61,041 nt of DNA from Gloeobacterales cyanobacterium (GTDB lineage: Bacteria; Cyanobacteriota; Cyanobacteriia; Gloeobacterales; PMM-0068): contig JBBRSB010000032.1 of the NCBI GenBank assembly GCA_038245785.1, positions 1-61,041 of the forward strand. The letters are read 5' to 3'. Made by a program: the position numbers and the translations under genes. Positions 13,423 to 44,027 of this stretch are shown piece after piece; position 1 is the stretch's first letter; every line of letters begins with the position of its first letter. The notes below the pieces were generated by a model, which saw only the letters and a list, made by a program, of their open reading frames with translations, made no database searches and was not told the origin of the DNA.

Positions 13423-13466
13423 AGAAATTCAATGTTCAAAAACAGATTTAAAAACGGCCCCAGCCG

Positions 13467-14777
13467 TCACAAAAATAATTGTCCAAGCAACCAAATATTT
13501 ACCCCCGCAATCATCAGCCCGACAATCCAGGCTAATCCCTTGACCCAAGAAGGGTTCACCAACGCACCCATCATCTGGCGATTGCCTGTGAAGAGAATCA
13601 AAGGAAATACCGCGAAGGGAAGCTGCAGACTGAGGACCACCTGGCTAAGTACGAGCATTTTGCCAAGGCTCTCTTCTCCAAAGTAAATAATGCCTACCAA
13701 AGCAGGGATAATAGCTAGCCCGCGCGTAATTAAACGTCGAAGCCAGCAGGGAATCTTTAAATCCAGAAACCCTTCCATGATAATTTGACCGGCCAAGGTG
13801 CCTGTAAAAGTAGAACTTTGCCCAGCGGCCAGGAGTGCAAAGGCAAAGAGTAGACTGGCGGCACCTGTTCCCAGTAGAGGGGTCAGAAGGCGATAGGCGT
13901 CTTGAATCTCCGCGACATCTTGGTTCCCAGAAAAGTGAAACGTCGCAGCAGAGACGATTAAGATTGCTGAATTGACCAGCAGGGCAAAAAATAAGGCAAT
14001 AGTTGAATCCAAGGTCCCATAACGGAACGCCTCGCGTTGATTATCGAAAGAGCGGGTCTGCACGATAGATGAATGCAGATAGAGATTATGGGGCATTACG
14101 GTCGCCCCTAAAATGCTGACAGCAAGGTAGAGCATCTCAGGATTTTGGAGAATTGCTGCCTGTGGCACGTAACCCCGCGCAACGGCAGACCAATCCGGCT
14201 GGGCAAACAAAATTTCCACTAGGAAACAACCACCAATCAGAGTGACCAATCCCAATATCAATACTTCTAGCCAGCGAAAGCCTTTTCCCTGAAGTGCAAG
14301 GACTATGAAGATATCCAGGGCTGTAATGCAGACGCCTGCAACCAAGGGAATATTAAAAAGCAACTTCAGGGCCAGGGCACTCCCCAAAAGTTCAGCCAAA
14401 TCGCAGGCAATAATCGCAATTTCTGCCAATACCCAAAGAAAAAGACTCACAGGCCGACTAAAGGCACTGCGGCATACTTGGGCTAGGTCTTGCCCTGTGG
14501 CCACTCCCAACCGAACGCAGAGAGACTGAAGGAGCACGGCCATCAGATTGGATAGAAAAACCACGCTCAGCAGGGCATAGCCGAACTGGGACCCCCCAGC
14601 AATGTCTGTGGCCCAGTTTCCTGGGTCCATATAGCCAACGGCTACTAAGTAACCTGGCCCGAAAAAGGCCAGCAGCGTTCTCCAAGTGCTTTTGCCTTGG
14701 GGAACGGCAACTGTGCCCCGAATTTCTGAAGGGCAGAAGGGAGCTGTGGGCTTTTTGGGAAGACTCCATTGGATCAT
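13467..14777 (-). CDS. mntH: Nramp divalent metal (Mn2+) transporter
   Basis: GYMDPGNW, GATVMPHNLYLHS, GQSST.TGTLAGQ, SQVVLSLQLPF. Confidence 0.95.
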   Translation of the reverse strand: MIQWSLPKKPTAPFCPSEIRGTVAVPQGKSTWRTLLAFFGPGYLVAVGYMDPGNWATDIAGGSQFGYALLSVVFLSNLMAVLLQSLCVRLGVATGQDLAQVCRSAFSRPVSLFLWVLAEIAIIACDLAELLGSALALKLLFNIPLVAGVCITALDIFIVLALQGKGFRWLEVLILGLVTLIGGCFLVEILFAQPDWSAVARGYVPQAAILQNPEMLYLAVSILGATVMPHNLYLHSSIVQTRSFDNQREAFRYGTLDSTIALFFALLVNSAILIVSAATFHFSGNQDVAEIQDAYRLLTPLLGTGAASLLFAFALLAAGQSSTFTGTLAGQIIMEGFLDLKIPCWLRRLITRGLAIIPALVGIIYFGEESLGKMLVLSQVVLSLQLPFAVFPLILFTGNRQMMGALVNPSWVKGLAWIVGLMIAGVNIWLLGQLFL

Positions 14778-15002
14778 GAAGGTATCCGCTCGTGTGTAAG
14801 CCTTTGCTGCCGCTAGGAGACTGCAACAACATCAGTATTGCAAGGCTATCGCAACTTCAGAGCTTGTGCTACTTAAAAATAGACTCTTTCTTCTTTCTTT
14901 AAAGTTTTTTACCTGTAGATAATCTGAGTGAGGCCGACGAATTATATGGGCAAACTGCTTCAAATACGTCAAGATGAAAAGAGCATCCCGTGGAAAATCG
15001 TC

Positions 15003-15113
15003 ATGTCAAAAGAACAAAAGAGTAATAGAGAAGCTAAAAAGCCAAAGGCTCAGTCTAAAAAACAAAAGAAAGAAGCTAAAAATAATGGTGGGCTTGGCAT
15101 TAAGCCAGCCTAA
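15003..15113 (+). CDS. Small Lys-rich protein (36 aa)
   Basis: MSKEQKSNREAKKPKAQSKKQKKEAKNNGGLGIKPA; resembles small bacterial SNREAKKPK-type proteins; weak SD (GGAA). Confidence 0.5.
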   Translation: MSKEQKSNREAKKPKAQSKKQKKEAKNNGGLGIKPA

Positions 15114-15254
15114 CGGTCACCCGATCTATCTAAACGAGGGAAGTCCGTTAGAGAGATGACGATTTGCCTCTACGTCTAACGTTGCTATTGATCATCTACG
15201 GCGGATGTCGATAAGCTGCGGATTAATTAGGTCTCTTTGGAGGAGTGTCATTTG

Positions 15255-15626
15255 ATGAAAGAGGCTAGTAATGTCTTGGGAGGAAGGCTGGAACTCTGCT
15301 GCACTTCCCCCATGACTGGATTTTATCGAGATGGAATGTGCACCACAGGCGGTGGAGATGTTGGCACGCATGTGGTCTGTGCACAAGTCACCGAAGAGTT
15401 CCTTGCCTATACCAAGTCGAGAGGCAATGATTTGAGCACGCCTGCTCCCCGGTTTAGTTTTCCCGGTTTAAAGCCTGGAGACCGTTGGTGCTTGTGTGCT
15501 TCTCGATGGAAAGAAGCCTTCGATGCTGGAGTGGCTCCTCCTATCGTCTTGGCCTCAACCCATGCGTTAGCGTTGGAATATGCTTCTTTGAGTGAACTTA
15601 AGCAACATGCACTCGATCTTGCTTAG
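15255..15626 (+). CDS. DUF2237 family protein
   Basis: NVLG, PMTGFYRDGMC, GNDLSTP, GLKPGDRWCLCASRW; SD GGAGGAG upstream. Confidence 0.9.
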   Translation: MKEASNVLGGRLELCCTSPMTGFYRDGMCTTGGGDVGTHVVCAQVTEEFLAYTKSRGNDLSTPAPRFSFPGLKPGDRWCLCASRWKEAFDAGVAPPIVLASTHALALEYASLSELKQHALDLA

Positions 15627-15690
15627 TTTAAGCGCGGAAGCCTCCACAGGTTCTAGCTCCAGAGCCATTCCTGGGAATCCATCTGCTGGG

Positions 15691-16053
15691 CTACCCTACC
15701 AAGATCCTTAATTCTGCCTCTCCGAGACTTTCCAGAAAAATCTCATTTTGCTTCTGATTAAGTAGTACTCCTTTTTCATCAAAATCGGGAAGGCGCAGCA
15801 GTTGCTCTGGCTGCTCTCTATCCATTACTGTCTTGAGGTATGGATTTCCCCCGTAGCTTGCAATGATAATTTCTACTGCTCTGTCCTCTGTCCACAGATA
15901 GAAAACATATTGCTGATTAAAAATAGCTTGTACTGCCTGCTCTTGGGTAAGCAACCAGCCATATCCTCCGATATGAGAAATACATTCATGAGGATTTTGC
16001 CGAGATGTCTTGGTAGTGCAAGTCACCTGCATCTTACAGGTAGTCACTATCAT
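15691..16053 (-). CDS. DUF3892 domain protein
   Basis: QVTCTTK..R.NPHECISHIGG..W, GNPYLKT..D...EQLLRLP. Confidence 0.75.
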   Translation of the reverse strand: MIVTTCKMQVTCTTKTSRQNPHECISHIGGYGWLLTQEQAVQAIFNQQYVFYLWTEDRAVEIIIASYGGNPYLKTVMDREQPEQLLRLPDFDEKGVLLNQKQNEIFLESLGEAELRILVG

Positions 16054-16109
16054 TCAAGTTCTCCCAGGGAAGAAGAATTAAGAGAAAATTAAGAATGGCT
16101 TACTTTTGT

Positions 16110-16340
16110 TTATTCCCCTGTAAGGAGCCAGCTTGGATGAATGTTATACACTTCATAAAGGCGAGAAAGAAATTCCACGTTAGGTAATTTTTCCTCTCTC
16201 TCATACTGAGCCAGAGTACTTTCACAAATTCCAAGTTCATCGGCGAATTGCTTTTGAGAAAAAGGAAAACGCACATGAGAAATACGAGAACCAAAACCAG
16301 CAGGCTTGTTCAGAGTAGGCAGAGAAAAACTTTTGATCAT
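16110..16340 (-). CDS. XRE/Cro-CI HTH-only regulator (lacks the S24 domain of its paralog)
   Basis: GSRISHVR..SQKQFADELGI.ESTLAQYEREEKLP...WLLTGE-stop; closely similar to the N-domain of 17612..18289. Confidence 0.75.
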   Translation of the reverse strand: MIKSFSLPTLNKPAGFGSRISHVRFPFSQKQFADELGICESTLAQYEREEKLPNVEFLSRLYEVYNIHPSWLLTGE

Positions 16341-16407
16341 GTCTTAGTGAACCTTTGGTAGAACTAGCTATCTTGGCCTGAGTAGAGATATTTCAATTCT
16401 TAGTATC

Positions 16408-16469
16408 AGGTTATACATGATTGCCCGTGCTGTCTCTCTGAAATTTGCTTAATATACCTTAATCTTGCT
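16408..16469 (-). promoter_or_regulatory. Putative AraC tandem box plus -10 element upstream of the small XRE gene
   Basis: AGCAAGATTAAGGTATATTA-AGCAAATTTCAGAGAGAC-N18-TAACCT on the minus strand. Confidence 0.55.
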
Positions 16470-16475
16470 CAAGTT

Positions 16476-17387
16476 CTAGAGACTGTTCCGATAGTCCCTA
16501 GGTGTCGTTCTAAGAAAACGGCGAAAGAGCGTAGTAAAGTGACTTTGACTCTGAAATCCAACTTGTTGTGTGATTTCTATAATAGACAATTCCTTCTTAG
16601 CTAATAACTGTTTTGCCCGCTCAATCCGACAATTGGTTACATACTGATGGGGAGGCATTCCGGTAGATTGCTTAAACAAACGTGCGAAATGATAGGGACT
16701 GATATGAACAAGCGAGGCCAGTTCGGTCAAACTTAAGTTGTGGTGTAGATAGTCATTGATGTAGTCTATAACCTGCTGTAATCTATATCGAGATAGACCA
16801 CCTGTATATTCTTGGATAACCTGTTTGTGAACGGTGTAATGTCGCAGAAGGTGAACAGATAACAGGGTCCCTGCTGTTTCAGCATAGAGGCGACTTCCCT
16901 CTTTATTGGACTTGAGTTCCGACATAAGCGATAGCCCAAGACCTTGAATCAGGGGATCTTTGGTTCCTAATTGAGGCTTCAGCTCAATTTCTTGGCCTGT
17001 TGTAGATTCAAAAACAACCTGCTGCATGAATGCAGGATCAAGGTAGAGATGAATGAATTCAACGTCCCCTTGCCAACGCATCTTTTGGGGCTGATGAGCA
17101 GGAGATATTCCTATATCACCACTCTGTTGAAGTCCATCCTGAAGACAGCCATCTTCTGCCAATAACTTCACTGTGTTCGAGTGACCTGCGTGGAGATGGA
17201 TAGTGTGCTCTGCAAGGAAAAACTCAGGAGTTTCATGAGTTGGTTGGTGGCAGTAACTTGCGCAAAGACCCTTCCATCCGGCCCCCCCACTAGAAAATGT
17301 GGGTAGATTAGGAACAACTCGTAAAATGTCACTTTCTGACGCTGGACTAAGCGCTGTAGATTTTTCTAGGGATCTTTGTTTTATCAT
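16476..17387 (-). CDS. AraC-family transcriptional regulator (full length)
   Basis: 303 aa; N-terminal sensor domain, then GGLSRYRLQQVIDYI, SPYHFARLFKQSTG, RIERAKQLL, GFQSQSHFT. Confidence 0.95.
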   Translation of the reverse strand: MIKQRSLEKSTALSPASESDILRVVPNLPTFSSGGAGWKGLCASYCHQPTHETPEFFLAEHTIHLHAGHSNTVKLLAEDGCLQDGLQQSGDIGISPAHQPQKMRWQGDVEFIHLYLDPAFMQQVVFESTTGQEIELKPQLGTKDPLIQGLGLSLMSELKSNKEGSRLYAETAGTLLSVHLLRHYTVHKQVIQEYTGGLSRYRLQQVIDYINDYLHHNLSLTELASLVHISPYHFARLFKQSTGMPPHQYVTNCRIERAKQLLAKKELSIIEITQQVGFQSQSHFTTLFRRFLRTTPRDYRNSL

Positions 17388-17611
17388 TTTGGCCTCTTCT
17401 TTGTGTCAGCCCTGTGTCGAATGTATGAAAGCGATGGAGTCTTAGAATTTAGGTGTCCTCAACTATGTAGAGATGATTTCTAACTACAGCTACTCTATTT
17501 TTCCTACAGTATTCTCGCATCCCTCTACCGACTGATACTCTAATTATTAATGCATATTGTTTTTAACAGGAATAGTTCTAACTAGGAGCAATAGAAAGGA
17601 GCAAAAAAATG

Positions 17612-18289
17612 CTAAATTCTTCGAGAAACTCGGATTATTCTTCCAACAATTTTTAGTCTTTGTGTCGATTCATTCGGGTTTATTGTCCATGACTCGTACG
17701 CTGGATTATCACTAATGACTTTAATTGAACTTCCAGAAAAGCGTTGCAACCGTTTAATAATCAGGGCATCTTCTACTTGTAATGCATAGATTCCATCGCG
17801 GACGGTAGTGTCCTTGCAGTTGACTATGACCATATCACCGGGAGAGAGAGTCGGTTTCATGCTTTCCCCCTCTATATCAATCAGGCGGAGGTCTTCTGGC
17901 TCTGCTTGAAATTGACGGAGCGCCCAACTTTTCTTGATAAAAACAAGTTCTCCTTCTTTCTGGTCTCTCAAGCTGCCATAGATAGGAATAGACACATAGT
18001 CTTCTAGAAGGGAAATTGGAGGCTCTGTGGCCGCTGGACTCCTGGATTCACCAGTAAGGAGCCAAGTAGGGTCGACTCCGTAGACTTCATAGATGCGGGT
18101 TAGTAATTCTGAATCGGGAAGGCGTTCTTCCTTCTCGTACCGAATCAGAGTGTTTTTGTGAATTCCTAGAGAATCGGCGAACTTGCCTTGGGTGACGCGA
18201 GAACGAACCTGAGTGATGCGAGCACCGATGCCACGAGAACTAGATGCACTAGACGGACAAGACGGACTGGACGGAGAAGAACGTTTCAT
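17612..18289 (-). CDS. XRE HTH + S24 peptidase (CI/LexA-like) repressor
   Basis: HTH TQGKFADSLGIHKNTLIRYE, WLLTGE; catalytic GESM.P and IKRL; SDNPAY. Confidence 0.93.
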   Translation of the reverse strand: MKRSSPSSPSCPSSASSSRGIGARITQVRSRVTQGKFADSLGIHKNTLIRYEKEERLPDSELLTRIYEVYGVDPTWLLTGESRSPAATEPPISLLEDYVSIPIYGSLRDQKEGELVFIKKSWALRQFQAEPEDLRLIDIEGESMKPTLSPGDMVIVNCKDTTVRDGIYALQVEDALIIKRLQRFSGSSIKVISDNPAYESWTINPNESTQRLKIVGRIIRVSRRI

Positions 18290-18407
18290 TGCGCTTTGGT
18301 GACCTGATATCTACAAATTTCCCTATGCATAACGCGATATTCAGTGGTGAAGTGATCCTGTGGCTAGATTTGTGGTTTTCTCTGTGAATTTGCTATCTCA
18401 GTAGACA

Positions 18408-18469
18408 ATATTACGAAATATCCTATATTTCGTCTTCCTAGTTCTTGCTAAATCTCCCTTATTCTTGCT
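18408..18469 (-). promoter_or_regulatory. Putative AraC tandem box plus -10 element, with a palindromic operator in the spacer
   Basis: AGCAAGAATAAGGGAGATTT-AGCAAGAACTAGGAAGAC-N18-TAATAT; palindrome CGAAATAT-cct-ATATTTCG at 18414-18432. Confidence 0.55.
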
Positions 18470-18789
18470 TACAAACGTTCTCTATAAGCACTAGGGGTTA
18501 TACCAACAGAACGGCGAAATAAATTGGTAAAGTGGCTCTGACTTTGAAGGCCAATTTGCTGTGTGATCTCTAGTATAGATAGATCTTTGTTGGCGAGTAA
18601 CTGCTTTGCTTTCTCGATCCGGCATGTGGTCAAATATTGATGAGGCGGAGCGCCTATGGACTGTTTGAATAGTCGGGCAAAGTAGTAGGGACTCATCTGC
18701 GCAATAGCCGCCAGTTTGACTAAGCTCAAGTCTTGATCTAGGTGGCCTTCGATGTAGTCTATTACTCGTCGCAGTTTGTACTCAAACAT
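18469..18789 (-). CDS. AraC DNA-binding-domain-only protein (possibly a truncated remnant)
   Basis: 106 aa; KLRRVIDYI, SPYYFARLFKQS, RIEKAKQLL, SQSHFT; paralog of the C-domain of 16476..17387. Confidence 0.75.
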   Translation of the reverse strand: MFEYKLRRVIDYIEGHLDQDLSLVKLAAIAQMSPYYFARLFKQSIGAPPHQYLTTCRIEKAKQLLANKDLSILEITQQIGLQSQSHFTNLFRRSVGITPSAYRERL

Positions 18790-19646
18790 CCTATCCGCAT
18801 GTTCCGCTATGTTTTGGTATTACTTTTATAATCTCTCTAAAAAGAGTGAGACCAGGAATCCTTTCCTAGAGAGTCTTTTTAGAATTAGCTGCGATTCCTC
18901 TTGGGCCAGTGCTTTCGCTTTCTGTGGAATGAATAATCACAGTAATGCACCTTAGTCTAGTAGTAACTTTGTACTGTTGTCTTGCCAATTCTTGCCAAAA
19001 GTACAGAACGCACTTTTAATTTCTTGAAACTTAATTATGACAATATAAGAGCAAAACGTGCCGCTCCAAATCTGAAAATTTAACTGCTGAATGATTTTTG
19101 AGCTAGAAGGGGATTGGGCTACTAAAAATGTACTAACTTCACAACTTATTGGCTCATGGTGTGACAAACTCAACGGCTTTGCTGGTCCATCGTTAAACAT
19201 TCATATATACTTGAAAAGTAACAGCCATCCATGAAATTAGCAGATTTTAGTTTAGAACACTTGTTCCAGTTCAATCAGAATTTAGTCTTCGCCGATACCT
19301 ATTTTTTGTATAGCAGGACACTTTCTAACTGTCAATCAGGTGAAAAATATCAGACTAAAGTTGGCAAGAGATGCTTTTATTATCACAAGCCTAATCAATT
19401 GCTCTCCATCTAGTAGTTGCAATAGAAGGAGTGGGTCCGGCCTGCACTGCTCCAGGATACTTAAAAATGTGCGTGCCTGGCTACTGATGATGTGCAAACG
19501 CTATTAGTTTTGATGTGATTTTACAGTCGCAGTCTAGGCAAGGCTACAGCAGGTAGAGGGCTCCAAGGGATTTCTGAGTCACTGCTCTCCACTCAGTGCT
19601 CTATCAGCAAGTTAAGCTAGGCTGATAGCTCTTTCTCTATTTTCCT

Positions 19647-20348
19647 ATGGTTCCTATCGGAGACTTTAACCCCAGTAAGCAGACCCCTTTTGTGGTTTAT
19701 CTGCTCTTGGCCGCTAATATTCTGGTGTTTCTCTATGAAGCAGTTAATCCTAACCTGAATCAATTTTTTAACCAGTGGGCGATTATTCCCGCCAAGGTTA
19801 CTCCAGCGCTAGAGGCCCTACTTAGTGGGCAAATCCAGGCGTTGCCCTATTTAGTCCCTCTGTTCACCGCAATGTTTTTGCATGGGGGCTTTCTTCACCT
19901 TGCAGGAAACATGTTGTTTCTATGGATCTTTGGAGACAACGTAGAGGACCGTTTAGGGCATGTGGGCTTTCTGATTTTCTATTTGACCTGTGGGATTTTT
20001 GCCACCTTAGTTCAAATTTGGGGTAATCCTACTTCTCAGATTCCAAACCTCGGTGCCAGTGGAGCGATTGCTGGAGTGCTAGGCGCTTATATTGTGCGTT
20101 TCCCTTCCGCAAAGATTCGGGCCATTTTTCCCCTAGGCTTTATCCCGATTCCCTTTAGCGTGCCTGCCATTGCTTTTATCGGATTCTGGTTTGTTCAACA
20201 GGCTTTTTACAGTCTTGCCAGCTTGGGACCTCGTACCCAAACGGGTATGGAGTCTGGGGGGGTTGCCTATTTAGCCCATGCGGGGGGCTTTCTTATCGGA
20301 GCTTTACTCATTTGGCTCTTTGACCGTGAGCCTACCTATAGGTACTAA
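19647..20348 (+). CDS. Rhomboid intramembrane serine protease
   Basis: MFLHGG..HLAGNM, GASGAIAG, AHAGGF. Confidence 0.93.
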   Translation: MVPIGDFNPSKQTPFVVYLLLAANILVFLYEAVNPNLNQFFNQWAIIPAKVTPALEALLSGQIQALPYLVPLFTAMFLHGGFLHLAGNMLFLWIFGDNVEDRLGHVGFLIFYLTCGIFATLVQIWGNPTSQIPNLGASGAIAGVLGAYIVRFPSAKIRAIFPLGFIPIPFSVPAIAFIGFWFVQQAFYSLASLGPRTQTGMESGGVAYLAHAGGFLIGALLIWLFDREPTYRY

Positions 20349-29876: not shown

Positions 29877-30044
29877 CTTCGAACGGCCTACGGCCTACAA
29901 AGTCCCCAAAGTACTCTTAGAGAGGCAAACTGTGGAGGAGTTAGGAAGCTTTGTGTAAGCCCTCATAAGCTCTTGAGGTCTAAATTTCCAGTATTTTTAC
30001 TGATACGATTGGCTATGGAAGAATTTCTCTAACCACTCTAAAAA

Positions 30045-32165
30045 ATGTCAGAATTTCATACGGATGGAGCCATTCTCGGCACTGATGAATCGCCTGACAA
30101 GCTCAATCGAACTGTCTTTGCTGAGTACATCGCTGATGTCATGCTGACGCTGCCAAAGGATTCTGGTTTTGTCCTCTCCTTAGAAGCACCTTGGGGGCAT
30201 GGAAAAACTTCAGTCCTGAATCTGATTCAAAAGCGATTTAAAGAGAAAGAAGTAAAGAATCAGCCAATTGTCTGTAAATTTAATCCCTGGATGATGGGTA
30301 GTGCAGAAACACTGGTTCAAAATTTACTTGTGCAGTTGGCGGCCTCGATTGAACTCCCTGATCATGTTGAGGATGGGAAAAAAGCTGCAAAAGCATTGTT
30401 AACTTATTCCGAAATGTTTTCAGTGCTTAAGTTTGTTCCTGGCACTGAGCCATGGGCAACTCTAATTAAGGGTGTTTTTGAGGCTGTTGGTAAGTCAACA
30501 GAAAAAATTGCAGATCTTAAAAAATTGGATATTGAGAAACGTCGTGATGAAGTTGTAGAAGCTCTACGTGATCTTGATCAACAAATTGTCATTATTGTTG
30601 ATGATATTGATCGCTTACCTCCGAAAGAAGTTTTTGAGATTGTGCGCCTAGTAAAAGCAGTCGCTGACTTTCCATGTGTCGTCTATATTCTTTGTTACGA
30701 TCCTTCGTATGTTGAAGCATCCTTAAAGTCTGCACAAATTGAGGAGCCTGGACTTTATCTTGACAAAATTGTTCAAATGAAATTGAGTCTTCCTGTCATA
30801 TCGGGAGATGATCTTGAGGCTTTGTTCGAGCAAGAATATGATGCACTCCCAAGAGAAGAGAATGTCTTTCCTAATATGGCAGAGAGGCTTAATAAACTTT
30901 GGTATCGTGGCCTCAGAGAAATTCTCGAAACACCACGAGATATCAAACGCCTCTTCAATAGAGTTCGTTTTGTTGAGCCTGGATGTCGAGGCAACGTGAA
31001 CCGAGCTGATCTTCTTGCTTTACAGGCTATTGCGTTAAAAGCTAACAAGGTATATCAGCATCTTTGTAAAAAAACAGAAGCATATATAGGGGTCGATATA
31101 CATCGTCAATTTGCACTTAATGATCCGAAGGCAATTATTAGCCAAAATGAAACAGAAAGAGGTAAAGCTCTAGCAGAAGCTCCTGTGCATTATCAGGATG
31201 CAGTCCAGAAACTACTCCAAGAACTCTTTCCTCAGTTAGATAATGCTGGGTCTTTTCATCATGGTTATGCTGCAACTCAAGGTCTAATCCGTTTGCCAGA
31301 CCGTCTCAAAATAGCCTTGTCTGGTGGACTACCTTCTCAGGAAGTATCTTATACTGATGCTATTGAATTCTTATCTTCAAATAGTCATAGATCGGAGCTC
31401 CTTGAAAATATTCTTGAGAAAAATCTGTTTCCTCGTTTCATTCATCAACTGCGTATAGCAGCCGATAGGACTAGGGTCGATAATCTTGAAAGCTTAATTG
31501 CTCAAGTTGGGAAAGTACTAGACTCTCCTAATGATTCTATTCGTCAGCCTAAGGATAGCATGGGTATTTTTGGAATTACTGTAACCGATTCCGCAAAATA
31601 TTTAATAATAGAATTATTGAAAAAAGAAGACGAACCGCAGCGTCTTTCAATTCTCCAGAATCTTTTTGAAAATCCAAAAGCACTTACTCTGTCAACCTCC
31701 TTAGTCTATGACTTGTGTAAGAGGGAAAGGACTTCTGAAGAACAAATTTTGACAGATAGCTCACAAATCGATCAGTTGAAAGTAACTTGGTTAGAAACTC
31801 TTAAATCCATTATTCAAAGTGCAGAAATATTGAACTTGGCGGAAAGTAGAGAGATCTTCCTGGTATTGACGCTCTTAAATCCTGATGTACTTATTCGATC
31901 AATAGATACACTTATAGATTCTGATGAGAAATTTGATAAGTACATAATGGCCATTGCGCCACGAGGGATTTCTTCTAATAAGGGAGCATTTGTTCATTTT
32001 GGAAAAGGATCATCATTAGAAAATTATGGCGGTGAACAACGACTTAAAAGAAGGGCTGAAGAACGCCTTAAGGACTCTTTAGTACAGGGAGAGCTGAGGT
32101 TTATCTTATCTGCGCTCCTATCAAGAAGACAGACTTATTTGAGTGATGGATCAGAAGATATATAA
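30045..32165 (+). CDS. KAP-family P-loop NTPase
   Basis: D.LNR..FA, Walker A APWGHGKTS, FNPW, Walker B IVIIVDDIDR, YLDKIVQ, TPRDIKR; visibly AT-richer than the flanks. Confidence 0.92.
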   Translation: MSEFHTDGAILGTDESPDKLNRTVFAEYIADVMLTLPKDSGFVLSLEAPWGHGKTSVLNLIQKRFKEKEVKNQPIVCKFNPWMMGSAETLVQNLLVQLAASIELPDHVEDGKKAAKALLTYSEMFSVLKFVPGTEPWATLIKGVFEAVGKSTEKIADLKKLDIEKRRDEVVEALRDLDQQIVIIVDDIDRLPPKEVFEIVRLVKAVADFPCVVYILCYDPSYVEASLKSAQIEEPGLYLDKIVQMKLSLPVISGDDLEALFEQEYDALPREENVFPNMAERLNKLWYRGLREILETPRDIKRLFNRVRFVEPGCRGNVNRADLLALQAIALKANKVYQHLCKKTEAYIGVDIHRQFALNDPKAIISQNETERGKALAEAPVHYQDAVQKLLQELFPQLDNAGSFHHGYAATQGLIRLPDRLKIALSGGLPSQEVSYTDAIEFLSSNSHRSELLENILEKNLFPRFIHQLRIAADRTRVDNLESLIAQVGKVLDSPNDSIRQPKDSMGIFGITVTDSAKYLIIELLKKEDEPQRLSILQNLFENPKALTLSTSLVYDLCKRERTSEEQILTDSSQIDQLKVTWLETLKSIIQSAEILNLAESREIFLVLTLLNPDVLIRSIDTLIDSDEKFDKYIMAIAPRGISSNKGAFVHFGKGSSLENYGGEQRLKRRAEERLKDSLVQGELRFILSALLSRRQTYLSDGSEDI

Positions 32166-42322: not shown

Positions 42323-43498
42323 TCACAACTCTAAGTGGCGATTAACTGTCTTCAGTAGACCTTCTTTTGTAAATGGTTTAGTCAGGTAGTCTGATGAGCC
42401 TACTAAAGTAGCTCTAGCACGGTCAAAGAATCCTGTATTGCCTGTCACCATTACAATCGGTGTTTTTTTAAACAAGGGATTCTTGCGGAGCAAACGGCAT
42501 AGCTCATAGCCGTCGATCATGGGCATTCCTACATCGAGTAGAATCAGATCTGGTTTGATGCGTGTGATTTGCATCAAGGCTTTTACCGGATCATTGATAG
42601 CAGTAACGCTATACTTCGGGTCTCCAAGACAGCGACTAATTTCATTGGTAATTGTTGGGCTGTCGTCGATACAAGCAATGGTATAAGTCGTCTCTGGTAT
42701 CAGCTCAGTAACGGATTCGGCTTTTGATAAAATTGGAAGCCTGGGTAGTAGATTAAATGGAGCCTGGGGTTCTCCGAGATGGATAACTTGTCCTCGGATA
42801 TAGGGAATTAGACTCCGAGCTAAATCCAGTTCATCTCGATTGATGATAGCGGATAGCCGTCGTAAGCTATGCCCTTTCAGCAGTGCTCGAAACTTTTCAG
42901 GCAGTTCTGGTAATTGCTCTTGTTGATGCTTCCCTTGATTAAAAAAGTAAAGACGCTGGTAAGGAGACCAGAGTACAAGACCTAAATTTTGCCAACCATC
43001 TAGTCTTTCTTTGGCGTATTCAATCAATGTAGATAAGTCGAATTTGCAAATGTTCAATGTTCTTTCAGAGGGAGGGCTGAATTCACATTGTGCCTGTTCT
43101 AACCAGGATAAAGATTCAAAAACTTCTCTAGTGATTTCCTCCATGATTTCTGTCAACTGAATGAAGGTTATCTTTTTTTGGCGTACCAACCAGAGGAGTA
43201 GTTCACTGTCTATAGGCTTTATCGACTGAGATTTTTTATGATCGAGCTGTGTGCGAATGTCCTCAGCTAAGGAAATTCCTTTGCGCCACAAGTAACCATA
43301 TAATCTATCTAATGGTTCGATACTGTTGGTAATATAGTTAATTTTACCGAGCTCTAAATCAATAAACCAGGCTACAGAATTATGTGTTACTACCAATTGT
43401 CCACTAGCTTGCTGAGTACAGAGGTCGCTTAACAAAACCATCGGTTTGCTTTCCGATGATTGGTTATAAATAGAAGTGTTGGTCTTGTTGGTTTCCAT
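42323..43498 (-). CDS. PatA-type response regulator
   Basis: PATAN-like N-terminus with SPYQR; C-terminal REC domain IACIDDS, DVGMPMIDGYE, LTKPF. Confidence 0.88.
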   Translation of the reverse strand: METNKTNTSIYNQSSESKPMVLLSDLCTQQASGQLVVTHNSVAWFIDLELGKINYITNSIEPLDRLYGYLWRKGISLAEDIRTQLDHKKSQSIKPIDSELLLWLVRQKKITFIQLTEIMEEITREVFESLSWLEQAQCEFSPPSERTLNICKFDLSTLIEYAKERLDGWQNLGLVLWSPYQRLYFFNQGKHQQEQLPELPEKFRALLKGHSLRRLSAIINRDELDLARSLIPYIRGQVIHLGEPQAPFNLLPRLPILSKAESVTELIPETTYTIACIDDSPTITNEISRCLGDPKYSVTAINDPVKALMQITRIKPDLILLDVGMPMIDGYELCRLLRKNPLFKKTPIVMVTGNTGFFDRARATLVGSSDYLTKPFTKEGLLKTVNRHLEL

Positions 43499-43532
43499 CG
43501 GAGTCACTGTGCCTAGAAGTTGCAAGTGTGTA

Positions 43533-44027
43533 TTACTGGATTGCTATTTGAATAAGATAGTTGTAGTCTAATAAAAAGATAAGAGGCTCATCTTCTACTT
43601 GAATAGTAAACCGACTGATAGTTTCCATATTTATTGGAATAGAATGAATCAAAGCTATCGGTACAAATGCAACCTCAGAGATGCGGCGCAATACAGGCGC
43701 TGCTGAGATAAGTATGGCCGTTAATGTTTTTTGAGGAGTTTCAAGAAGGATAAGATATCCTTTCTTCGTATCGAGTTCTTGTTGCTTCTTCTCTCCCGTC
43801 AAATAGGTTGTTAGGTCTAAAAGATAAACCTCTTTATTCTCATAGGTGGTTGGTAGATACAGACTTTCCTGGTCTTTATAAATAGTCTGGATCGGGACTA
43901 CTTTTTGTGCAATCTCTGTGGAGATGGCAAGCCATTCTGGACCTGCCTTGAAAGTAATCATCTGTCTGGTTGCAGGAGGTTTACGATCCGCCAGTCGGCG
44001 AGCAGTAAAGCTAGAAATAAGAGCCAT
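43533..44027 (-). CDS. Divergent CheW-like protein
   Basis: MALISSFTARR N-terminus, WLAI....QKVVP, LIFLLD; directly downstream of cheA. Confidence 0.7.
   Translation of the reverse strand: MALISSFTARRLADRKPPATRQMITFKAGPEWLAISTEIAQKVVPIQTIYKDQESLYLPTTYENKEVYLLDLTTYLTGEKKQQELDTKKGYLILLETPQKTLTAILISAAPVLRRISEVAFVPIALIHSIPINMETISRFTIQVEDEPLIFLLDYNYLIQIAIQ

Follow-up and report, generated by a model that had tools for sequence, protein, structure and literature searches.

A cluster of five regulatory genes in a cyanobacterium of the order Gloeobacterales is best explained, with middling confidence, as a working accessory XRE-plus-peptidase/DUF3892 switch, in which an S24 peptidase fused to the repressor takes the place of CapP and two paralogs that have each lost a domain are maintained by selection. 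The switch is likely to be stress-triggered, of the kind known beside anti-phage systems. The cluster (the islet) is located on a 61,041 nucleotide (nt) stretch of DNA, the window, which is contig C32 (GenBank JBBRSB010000032.1) of a 5.0-Mb, 255-contig assembly (GCA_038245785.1, here the own genome or G000), and was compared with the sister-species genomes G001 and G002, of which G002 belongs to the same genus. The open reading frame (ORF) list and Pfam matches place five ORFs on the minus strand, head to tail within positions 15691-18789:

18469-18789, minus strand: mini-AraC, 106 amino acids (aa), with HTH_18 as sole Pfam domain (E 8.5e-26), SoxS/MarA format
17612-18289, minus strand: XRE-S24, 225 aa, with HTH_3/HTH_19 plus Peptidase_S24 (E 2.7e-18), CI/LexA format
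16476-17387, minus strand: full AraC, 303 aa, with HTH_18 at residues 223-301 and a predicted cupin-like N-terminal domain
16110-16340, minus strand: mini-XRE, 76 aa, with HTH_3 as sole Pfam domain, Cro format
15691-16053, minus strand: DUF3892, 120 aa, PF13031 at 35.4 bits against a cut-off of 22.3

The order, orientation and position of these genes confirm an initial annotation made from the sequence alone, and the claim that no enzyme or transporter target is present also stands, since Pfam recognised no such gene among the five ORFs of the islet interior, and the neighbours encode DUF2237, NRAMP and rhomboid proteins. The wider interpretation given there was borne out in part: the short genes do behave as functional units, whereas cleavage stimulated by RecA* as an input lost support. 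As the five genes are real, and the short ones are conserved and selected, the islet is likely to be a working regulatory module.

The G002 ortholog of mini-AraC is a 113-aa ORF with 83% amino acid identity and the same truncation point, with a TAA at the equivalent place upstream, and the loss of the N-terminal domain therefore predates the split of the two species. Comparison of the two genes gave a dN of 0.085, a dS of 1.47 and a dN/dS of 0.058 (NG86), or about 0.25 (0.125/0.51) with YN00, with the exact value being soft because dS is near saturation, while the heme oxygenase (HO) gene used as control gave 0.05-0.12. Short homologs of mini-AraC of 106, 113 and 113 aa were present in a protein collection at 98, 85 and 81% identity. 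The dN/dS was 0.27-0.31 for mini-XRE versus the truncated XREs of G001 and G002, 0.23 in the helix-turn-helix (HTH) and 0.13 in the 30 tail codons between the latter two, and 0.23 for DUF3892. The initial annotation had named dN/dS as a check on the mini genes, and neither was neutral (mini-AraC 0.06-0.25, mini-XRE about 0.3). The arrangement also extends beyond this assembly, as had been asked of it, with contigs of related populations from three other metagenome studies (runs X3, X7 and X8; 85–95% alike) covering all five genes; these bridge DUF2237 to DUF3892, DUF3892 to mini-XRE, and the full AraC with ~40 nt on each side, although none spans all five. Over 18465-19436, ~7-9% of the bases differ in these relatives, and the six listed mini-AraC substitutions common to the X3, X7 and X8 runs comprise five synonymous changes and one G15S change (codons read by hand), the latter also being present in the 98%-identical protein. 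Kept in the genus and under purifying selection (dN/dS far below 1), both short genes are conserved, selected genes and not decaying remnants.

At the G002 locus, mini-AraC, XRE-S24 and a truncated XRE are located between the same flanks, HO and rhomboid, and this locus is contiguous, since its two contigs overlap there. The architecture to be looked for in related genomes was thus recovered for these three genes, but not for DUF3892 and the full AraC, which are absent there. The G001 locus has retained a truncated XRE and lost mini-AraC and XRE-S24; the full AraC was not found at the G001 or G002 locus, and HO directly adjoins the truncated XRE in both. Mini-XRE and the truncated XREs of G001 and G002 form one clade (support 94/99), with mini-XRE on a long branch. 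The two sister genes share an internal S24 deletion behind which a C-terminal remnant (SDxPAYASCTF) remains, whereas the TAA stop of mini-XRE aligns with a TCA of the sister genes, and homology continues for ~15 nt past this stop. Mini-XRE was shortened stepwise, by the internal S24 deletion common to the two sister species followed by a nonsense codon in the window genome, and this history does not fit the initial idea of a reciprocal truncation by design.

The two XREs are paralogs as claimed earlier, their HTHs being 56% identical over 62 aa (E 2e-26), and the DNA-binding domains of the mini and full AraC are 65% identical over 103 aa (E 1e-48). AraC homology extends for 9 codons upstream of the mini-AraC ATG, to position 18816, and is followed by an in-frame TAA, which agrees with the earlier observation that codons ahead of the ATG still align with AraC; no remnant of the AraC N-terminal domain was found in 18790-19640, upstream of mini-AraC. 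The islet can be divided into two diverged [AraC, box, XRE] units placed head to tail, with unit A consisting of mini-AraC and XRE-S24, and unit B of the full AraC, mini-XRE and DUF3892. In the stretch following the AraC stop codon, 20 of the first 24 bases are identical between the units (counted by hand on alignment A1), while their AraC coding DNA is less similar, at 66% identity. The 3′ flank of the AraC paralog at C1:408368 has neither a GCAAGA box nor a downstream XRE. Because the post-stop stretch is shared between the two units and absent after the C1 paralog, the AraC 3′ end, the post-stop stretch and the XRE 5′ end were duplicated together. The following elements were found within and upstream of these units:

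18978-19000, minus strand: Box 1, TTTTGGCAAGAATTGGCAAGACA, two GCAAGA 10 bp apart (pattern match 18980-18995), candidate operator or activator site
18443-18468, minus strand: Box 2, GCAAGA-N14-GCAAGA (20-bp period), directly after the mini-AraC stop and upstream of XRE-S24
16442-16467, minus strand: Box 3, GCAAGA-N14-GCAAAT, degenerate copy of Box 2 after the full-AraC stop and upstream of mini-XRE
18413-18433, minus strand: perfect 9+3+9 palindrome, ACGAAATAT-AGG-ATATTTCGT, between mini-AraC and XRE-S24, noticed by eye

Box 1 is located about 190 bp upstream of the mini-AraC start, and differs at a single position in G002, where the intergenic sequence around it aligns poorly, as expected of a phylogenetic footprint. 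A similar box (GCAAGACAAyAG) precedes a second DUF3892 gene of the own genome, which is paired with an XRE-S24 gene on contig C5, giving two operons of the form box-cargo-XRE-S24, in which the cargo is mini-AraC on C32 and in G002, and DUF3892 on C5. Eleven regions upstream of these genes and of related genes, 2095 nt in total, contain 10 sense-strand copies of GCAAGA, compared with 0.86 expected, and no antisense copy; this Poisson figure overstates independence, since the counts include homologous copies. The 61-kb window contains just two GCAAGA pairs (0.44 expected), which flank mini-AraC, and 3 of the 68 same-strand pairs spaced 8–40 bp apart in the 5.0-Mb genome are in the two DUF3892 loci, with spacings of 10, 20 and 30 bp. 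The box is also present without an adjacent AraC gene (C5, G001). We considered the box as a property of the AraC 3′ flank, and rejected this given the equally similar C1 paralog without a box. The palindrome is a possible, weakly supported dimer operator; it was not reported by the repeat finder (minimum length 12) and is not conserved in G002, and a search for long palindromes shared among promoters of the genus returned none.

In the window, DUF3892 starts 56 bp downstream of mini-XRE and is preceded by a GGGAGAA Shine-Dalgarno-like site. It scored 35.9 bits in a profile search of genomes. The own genome has exactly two DUF3892 genes, the second of which, on C5, encodes a protein 64.5% identical to that of the window and is located 113 bp upstream of an XRE-S24 gene on the same strand. 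This pair (C5:143064-144172) lies inside a polysaccharide biosynthesis and export cluster, with GCAAGA repeats 30 bp apart upstream; other members of the cluster include a glycosyltransferase 28 C-domain protein and a nucleotidyl transferase, as well as a sugar transferase and an export protein recognised by eye. DUF3892 is rare in cyanobacteria, being found in 5/301 genomes with a protein query and in 5/401 with the Pfam model, with the own genome included in both. We compared 18 DUF3892 contexts outside the own genome, of which four were cyanobacterial, six came from 39 matching plasmids (using PLSDB gene tables, which are incomplete) and eight were viral contigs (60/132 ORFs scanned). Four weaker PF13031 matches in other cyanobacteria (G124, G375, G433 and G486; E 1e-7 to 3e-4), inspected as ORF lists, were left out, one of them being inside a 359-aa ORF (369 aa open frame) and possibly spurious.

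An XRE and a peptidase were found beside DUF3892 in 6/18 of these contexts. On contig C33 of G165 (L038 4463-10369), one strand encodes in succession an XRE, an M78 peptidase, DUF3892, a patatin, a DncV-like cyclase, an E2-E1 protein and a JAB protein, which is a type II CBASS system behind a CapH/CapP-like pair, with DUF3892 between regulators and effectors. DUF3892 is divergent from XRE and M78 genes in G229, and HTH and ImmA/IrrE genes adjoin it on plasmids NC_007617 and NZ_CP016951. On the latter, a Cupriavidus taiwanensis plasmid (L052 2115-5990), ImmA/IrrE and HTH genes are divergent from DUF3892, which is the first gene of a ubiquitin-like conflict system located behind this CapH/CapP-like pair; next come a hypothetical gene and genes for a multiubiquitin-domain protein, a ThiF adenylyltransferase and DUF6527. 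Two viral contigs complete the six, with an XRE-S24 gene upstream of DUF3892 (L066) or a divergent M78 peptidase (L069). The DUF3892 genes of G001 and G127 have no XRE-peptidase neighbour (the G127 contig is just 2.2 kb), DUF3892 occurs amid toxin-antitoxin, restriction-modification and lysis genes on plasmids and phages, and a tblastn search of a phage genome collection found no relative. In its accessible part, the study of Lau et al. (10.1101/2022.04.27.489752) lists DUF3892 operons among systems with CapH/CapP-like regulators, and refers to Burroughs and Aravind (2020) both for the occurrence of DUF3892 in HTH-metallopeptidase operons and for its predicted role in defence. The DUF3892 fold has been likened to dsRBD/HPF, and a role as sensor of viral RNA or ribosomes proposed, in the available portion of 10.1101/2025.01.14.632903. 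Among seven papers that mention DUF3892, none was found to pair it with XRE-S24 or AraC. The initial annotation had DUF3892 as a mere end target, and the C5 pair and the 6/18 contexts instead portray it as a recurrent companion of XRE-plus-peptidase switches.

Residues S143 and K179 of XRE-S24 are invariant in seven relatives and align with the GDSM and VKKLQ of UmuD′, and conservation of this Ser/Lys dyad suggests that proteolysis still matters. At the position of the outgroups' GASAGPGAF (the ASAGPG loop), all four proteins of the genus have an 8-residue deletion, with the cleavage-loop position reading IYGS (Tyr-Gly) in the window protein and VAGY in its G002 ortholog, and the Pfam S24 match starts at model position 25–26 in the window protein and at 16–17 in its two paralogs. 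Besides RecA, the own genome encodes a separate, complete LexA-like protein, whose match covers S24 model positions 1-115. According to the accessible text of PMC11787620, the scissile Ala-Gly bond of LexA lies on this loop, which also contacts RecA*; with the loop deleted, RecA* input is doubtful, and the corresponding part of the initial interpretation is weakened in spite of the retained dyad. A literature search on LexA cleavage in Gloeobacter found nothing relevant. The HTH of XRE-S24 is 89% identical to that of the G002 ortholog, compared with 62–64% for the whole protein. Mini-XRE and XRE-S24 have recognition helices with several differing positions. Among solved structures, the HTH of ImmR of ICEBs1 (7t8i) is the nearest, PADLOC gave generic HTH matches only for the XREs, and matches of the XRE proteins to the antitoxin families MqsA, PezA and spr1629 were weak and all below cut-offs.

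The own genome has three XRE-S24 genes of this family (window, C5 and C4). The C4 gene (225 aa) is divergent from a gene for a 100-aa HTH_35 protein (PF13693, E 1.8e-24) in a CI/Cro-like layout (both genes at C4:88349-89441), adjoins a Ras-like small GTPase gene, and has no GCAAGA box upstream. Relatives of XRE-S24 elsewhere are located in mobile or defence islands. One 41%-identical relative, on an Altericista sp. chromosome (L022 5600-11013), has an intact ASAG loop, and its promoter is flanked by two TGTCCGTTCGGACA-type palindromes; its neighbours include an IS-type transposase, a Toprim protein, a VapBC-like pair (by eye) and ABC-3C (CTD6 plus AAA ATPase).

The end-to-end alignment of mini-AraC with the SoxS model covers model positions 7-107 of 107, and the RamA and MarA models align over the whole protein as well, with scores far below the NCBIfam equivalog cut-offs (55.8 versus 174 bits for SoxS, 51.3 versus 180 for RamA and 41.5 versus 202 for MarA); mini-AraC has the SoxS format without being a member of the SoxS, RamA or MarA equivalogs. 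Both AraC proteins exceed the Pfam HTH_18 and HTH_AraC cut-offs, and neither was matched by PADLOC. The AlphaFold2 model of the full AraC (mean pLDDT 71) has an N-terminal cupin-like beta-barrel next to the DNA-binding domain, with Foldseek matches to the full-length AraC regulators ToxT, Rns, CsvR and CuxR (E 1e-10 to 2e-5) and to cupins; its DNA-binding domain superposes on those of AraC, MarA and SoxS, at about 2 Å for the latter two. The N-terminal 200 aa have no Pfam family above threshold (AraC_binding_2 reached E 0.016, below the cut-off). The cupin-type domain of the model agrees with the ligand input proposed earlier for the full AraC. The own-genome family has eight members, mini-AraC and seven full-length proteins, the latter comprising that of the window and the following:

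C1:408368-409270, C1:230575-231591, C14:34858-35781, C15:77639-78529, C23:70766-71737 and C28:14029-14958: six other full-length AraC paralogs, 38-47% identity

The neighbours of these six, identified by eye from their translations, are mostly oxidoreductase, cupin, NmrA-like or DJ-1-like genes, and upstream of the paralog at C1:408368 there is a tRNA-like sequence ending in CCA, also seen by eye. In a tree of DNA-binding domains, mini-AraC, the full AraC and the C1:408368-409270 paralog form an unresolved polytomy, with mini-AraC 64% identical to the C1 paralog and 65% to the full AraC of the window. The claim that the two AraCs are close paralogs hence holds for their identity, while the full AraC is no nearer a neighbour of mini-AraC than the C1 paralog is. 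The recognition helices of all three proteins are nearly identical.

These observations can be combined into the following model. The cargo genes mini-AraC and DUF3892 would be kept off by XRE-type repressors acting on their GCAAGA-boxed promoters, with an XRE-S24 dimer binding the GCAAGA repeats and repressing the box-cargo-XRE-S24 operons here and on C5. In response to a stress signal, the S24 peptidase would inactivate the repressor of which it is part, by a trigger that may not be the classical RecA*-stimulated Ala-Gly cleavage, since the loop is missing. Mini-AraC, once released, would be a SoxS/MarA-like, ligand-independent activator whose dose is the signal, and may recognise the same sites as the full AraC and the closest paralog of the latter, as proposed from their nearly identical recognition helices. 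Mini-XRE, which cannot be cleaved, would act on the DUF3892 unit in a Cro-like manner, and the role of DUF3892 would be that of a sensor or of the physiological output.

Several observations weigh against this model, in addition to the shared ancestry of the counted GCAAGA copies. The induction step is its weakest link, because none of the three XRE-S24 proteins of the own genome has the canonical Ala-Gly cleavage loop. Direct repeats on one helix face are more in keeping with AraC-type proteins than with XRE dimers, the XRE-S24 relatives at 41% identity have the palindromic operator TGTCCGTTCGGACA instead of GCAAGA boxes, and the third XRE-S24 paralog, on C4, lacks the box as well. Divergence of the mini-XRE helix argues against simple competition for one operator. 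The persistence in G002 of mini-AraC, XRE-S24 and a truncated XRE, without DUF3892 and the full AraC, means that the five genes are not an obligate set, and 12/18 of the DUF3892 contexts have no XRE-peptidase neighbour. Finally, the AlphaFold2 model of DUF3892 is of moderate quality (mean pLDDT 59, core 70–85) and had no Foldseek match in the PDB at E ≤ 0.001; its sequence profile likewise found nothing in the PDB, and a protein atlas returned no clusters other than those of DUF3892.

The initial annotation had favoured a gate with two inputs, with a small-molecule ligand sensed by the full AraC, RecA* sensed by XRE-S24, and the short proteins as constitutive competitors for the same operators in one cascade towards DUF3892, and we consider this rather unlikely. 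The predicted cupin-type N-terminal domain, the intact S24 Ser/Lys dyad in a genome with RecA, the near-identity of the mini and full AraC recognition helices, the selection on the short genes and the duplication of AraC-box-XRE as a whole unit all speak for such a gate. It would, however, require RecA* input through XRE-S24 proteins which in this genus lack the Ala-Gly loop that contacts RecA* (loop role as given in the available part of PMC11787620), and competition by a mini-XRE with a diverged recognition helix; furthermore, mini-AraC and XRE-S24 persist in G002 without the full AraC and DUF3892, and the AraC family looks like housekeeping, with other members beside oxidoreductase and cupin genes.

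It is unlikely that DUF3892 is instead a growth-arresting toxin, with mini-XRE (XRE-S24 on C5) as its antitoxin and autorepressor in a toxin-antitoxin-like or abortive-infection pair, and the AraCs as bystanders. In favour of such a pair, the two genes are close together, 113 bp apart on C5 and 56 bp apart in the window, where DUF3892 has a Shine-Dalgarno-like site, the XREs weakly match MqsA, PezA and spr1629 below cut-offs, DUF3892 is found near toxin-antitoxin, restriction-modification and lysis genes on plasmids and phages, and the accessible text of 10.1101/2025.01.14.632903 proposes an RNA- or ribosome-binding fold. The gene order is nevertheless opposite in the two own-genome pairs, DUF3892 had no PADLOC or toxin family match, several DUF3892 genes have no XRE neighbour, and DUF3892 often separates the regulators from a larger defence operon, as would be expected of a regulatory component more than of a toxin.

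It is quite improbable that the five genes are chance neighbours, an AraC paralog pair and a mobile-element immunity relic (XRE-S24, short XRE and DUF3892) acting independently in a recombination-prone gap. Low GC (0.41–0.44 versus about 0.50 around the islet), the differing HO-rhomboid gene content of G000, G001 and G002, an NRAMP indel in relatives, the mobile and defence islands housing XRE-S24 relatives and the size of the AraC family speak for chance, while the joint duplication of the AraC 3′ end, box and XRE 5′ end, and the mini-AraC-XRE-S24 adjacency kept in G002 along with the upstream box, speak against it. Decay after tandem duplication, the alternative named in the initial annotation, in which the short genes are dying remnants in an arrangement without function of its own, could explain the homology past both truncation points (9 codons before the mini-AraC ATG, ~15 nt after the mini-XRE stop), the resemblance of the mini-XRE stop to a single-base nonsense change in a gene on a long branch, and the loss of mini-AraC and XRE-S24 at the G001 locus, but is very improbable, and already looks refuted for mini-AraC, given dN/dS far below 1 for both short genes, a mini-AraC frame, start region and length kept in G002 and three protein clusters, a truncated XRE kept in three species, and genes retained by relatives in three other studies.

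Beyond the switch favoured here, it is a long shot that the XRE-S24 proteins of this genus undergo cleavage, or cut a partner, upon a signal other than RecA*, with DUF3892 as the sensor licensing this cleavage, and a SoxS-like mini-activator as output, a reading suggested by the loss of the Ala-Gly loop while the selected Ser/Lys dyad was kept. If true, this would be a RecA-independent switch for infection or translation stress, and a self-contained sensor-protease-activator circuit in an early-branching cyanobacterial lineage.

Lambdoid phages have homologous repressors such as 434 CI and Cro, and in Pseudomonas aeruginosa PrtR-PrtN and AlpR-AlpA form chromosomal cascades of a LexA-like repressor over a positive regulator. 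Like CI/Cro pairs, the islet brings together a putatively cleavable CI-like repressor and its short homolog consisting of the HTH alone, and like the Pseudomonas systems it would set a LexA-like repressor above a positive regulator, but its genes are co-oriented and not divergent, the helix of its short XRE has diverged, and no lysis or pyocin genes follow, which also sets it apart from PrtR-PrtN and AlpR-AlpA. The activity of SoxS is set by its expression level under SoxR. SoxS, MarA and RamA consist, as mini-AraC does, of the DNA-binding domain alone (about 105–130 aa, mini-AraC 106 aa) with two HTH motifs; mini-AraC differs in its recent derivation from a cupin-bearing cyanobacterial AraC lineage, and its proposed regulator is XRE-S24 rather than SoxR or MarR. 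LexA, lambda-type CI and UmuD resemble XRE-S24 in having an N-terminal HTH and a C-terminal S24 domain, with the dyad aligned to that of UmuD′, but have an Ala-Gly (or Cys-Gly) scissile bond, where the XRE-S24 loop is 8 residues shorter and reads Tyr-Gly, and the LexA-like gene of the own genome is separate.

As in CapH/CapP, ImmR/ImmA, DdrO/IrrE and the 'DUF3892 systems' treated in the accessible text of 10.1101/2022.04.27.489752, the islet has an XRE repressor and a peptidase beside DUF3892. Such CapH/CapP-like pairing with DUF3892 was seen in two cyanobacteria, two plasmids and one viral contig, the second viral contig having XRE-S24. The XRE HTH shared with CapH (HTH_3/HTH_19) is generic and not CapH-specific. 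CapP is a separate M78 (ImmA/IrrE) peptidase, whereas the islet has no M78 gene and an S24 serine peptidase fused to its repressor. CapH/CapP regulators are described in the same source as upstream of, and on the opposite strand to, their operon, while the islet genes are all co-oriented; moreover, the islet has interleaved AraC regulators and no large defence operon behind them. The DUF3892-XRE-peptidase theme, AraC proteins consisting of the DNA-binding domain alone and HTH-only XREs are thus already known; what is new is that the S24 domain is fused and has no Ala-Gly loop, that AraC units are interleaved, that a GCAAGA box is shared, and that both truncated paralogs are under selection.

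The G+C content of the islet is 0.41–0.44, compared with ~0.50 in its surroundings, and it is flanked by the following genes, with an NRAMP gene also on the DUF2237 side:

15237-15626, plus strand: DUF2237 gene, flank on the DUF3892 side
19647-20348, plus strand: rhomboid gene, flank on the mini-AraC side

The gene content between HO and rhomboid is fluid in the genus, differing in G000, G001 and G002. The NRAMP (MntH-like) gene (13467-14777) is skipped in related-population contigs of runs X3 and X7, with position 13447 joined to 14934 and 6 other letters in between. Other low-GC patches in the window, at 30001-32000 (0.38–0.41) and 43001-44000 (0.39), may be acquired islets. A search for RNA sequencing runs containing the stretch listed none. 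An Rfam scan of 15000-20000 gave no match at E ≤ 0.1, and a promoter and terminator consensus scan found 3 promoter-like sites, compared with 8.0 in shuffled sequences, and nothing usable between the genes.

Small DUF3892 proteins are widespread on mobile elements, and published work connects them with defence and with XRE/peptidase switches of the DNA-damage type. The islet and the C5 locus offer close to a minimal natural setting for their study, with a repressor, a box and DUF3892, and no large effector operon, and both short regulators are under selection, so that the role of DUF3892 could be addressed at this locus. The locus could likewise show whether S24 repressors without the Ala-Gly loop still switch, and how domain-loss paralogs such as a SoxS-format AraC and a Cro-format XRE join circuits. 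For the organism itself, it is an ordinary accessory regulatory islet.

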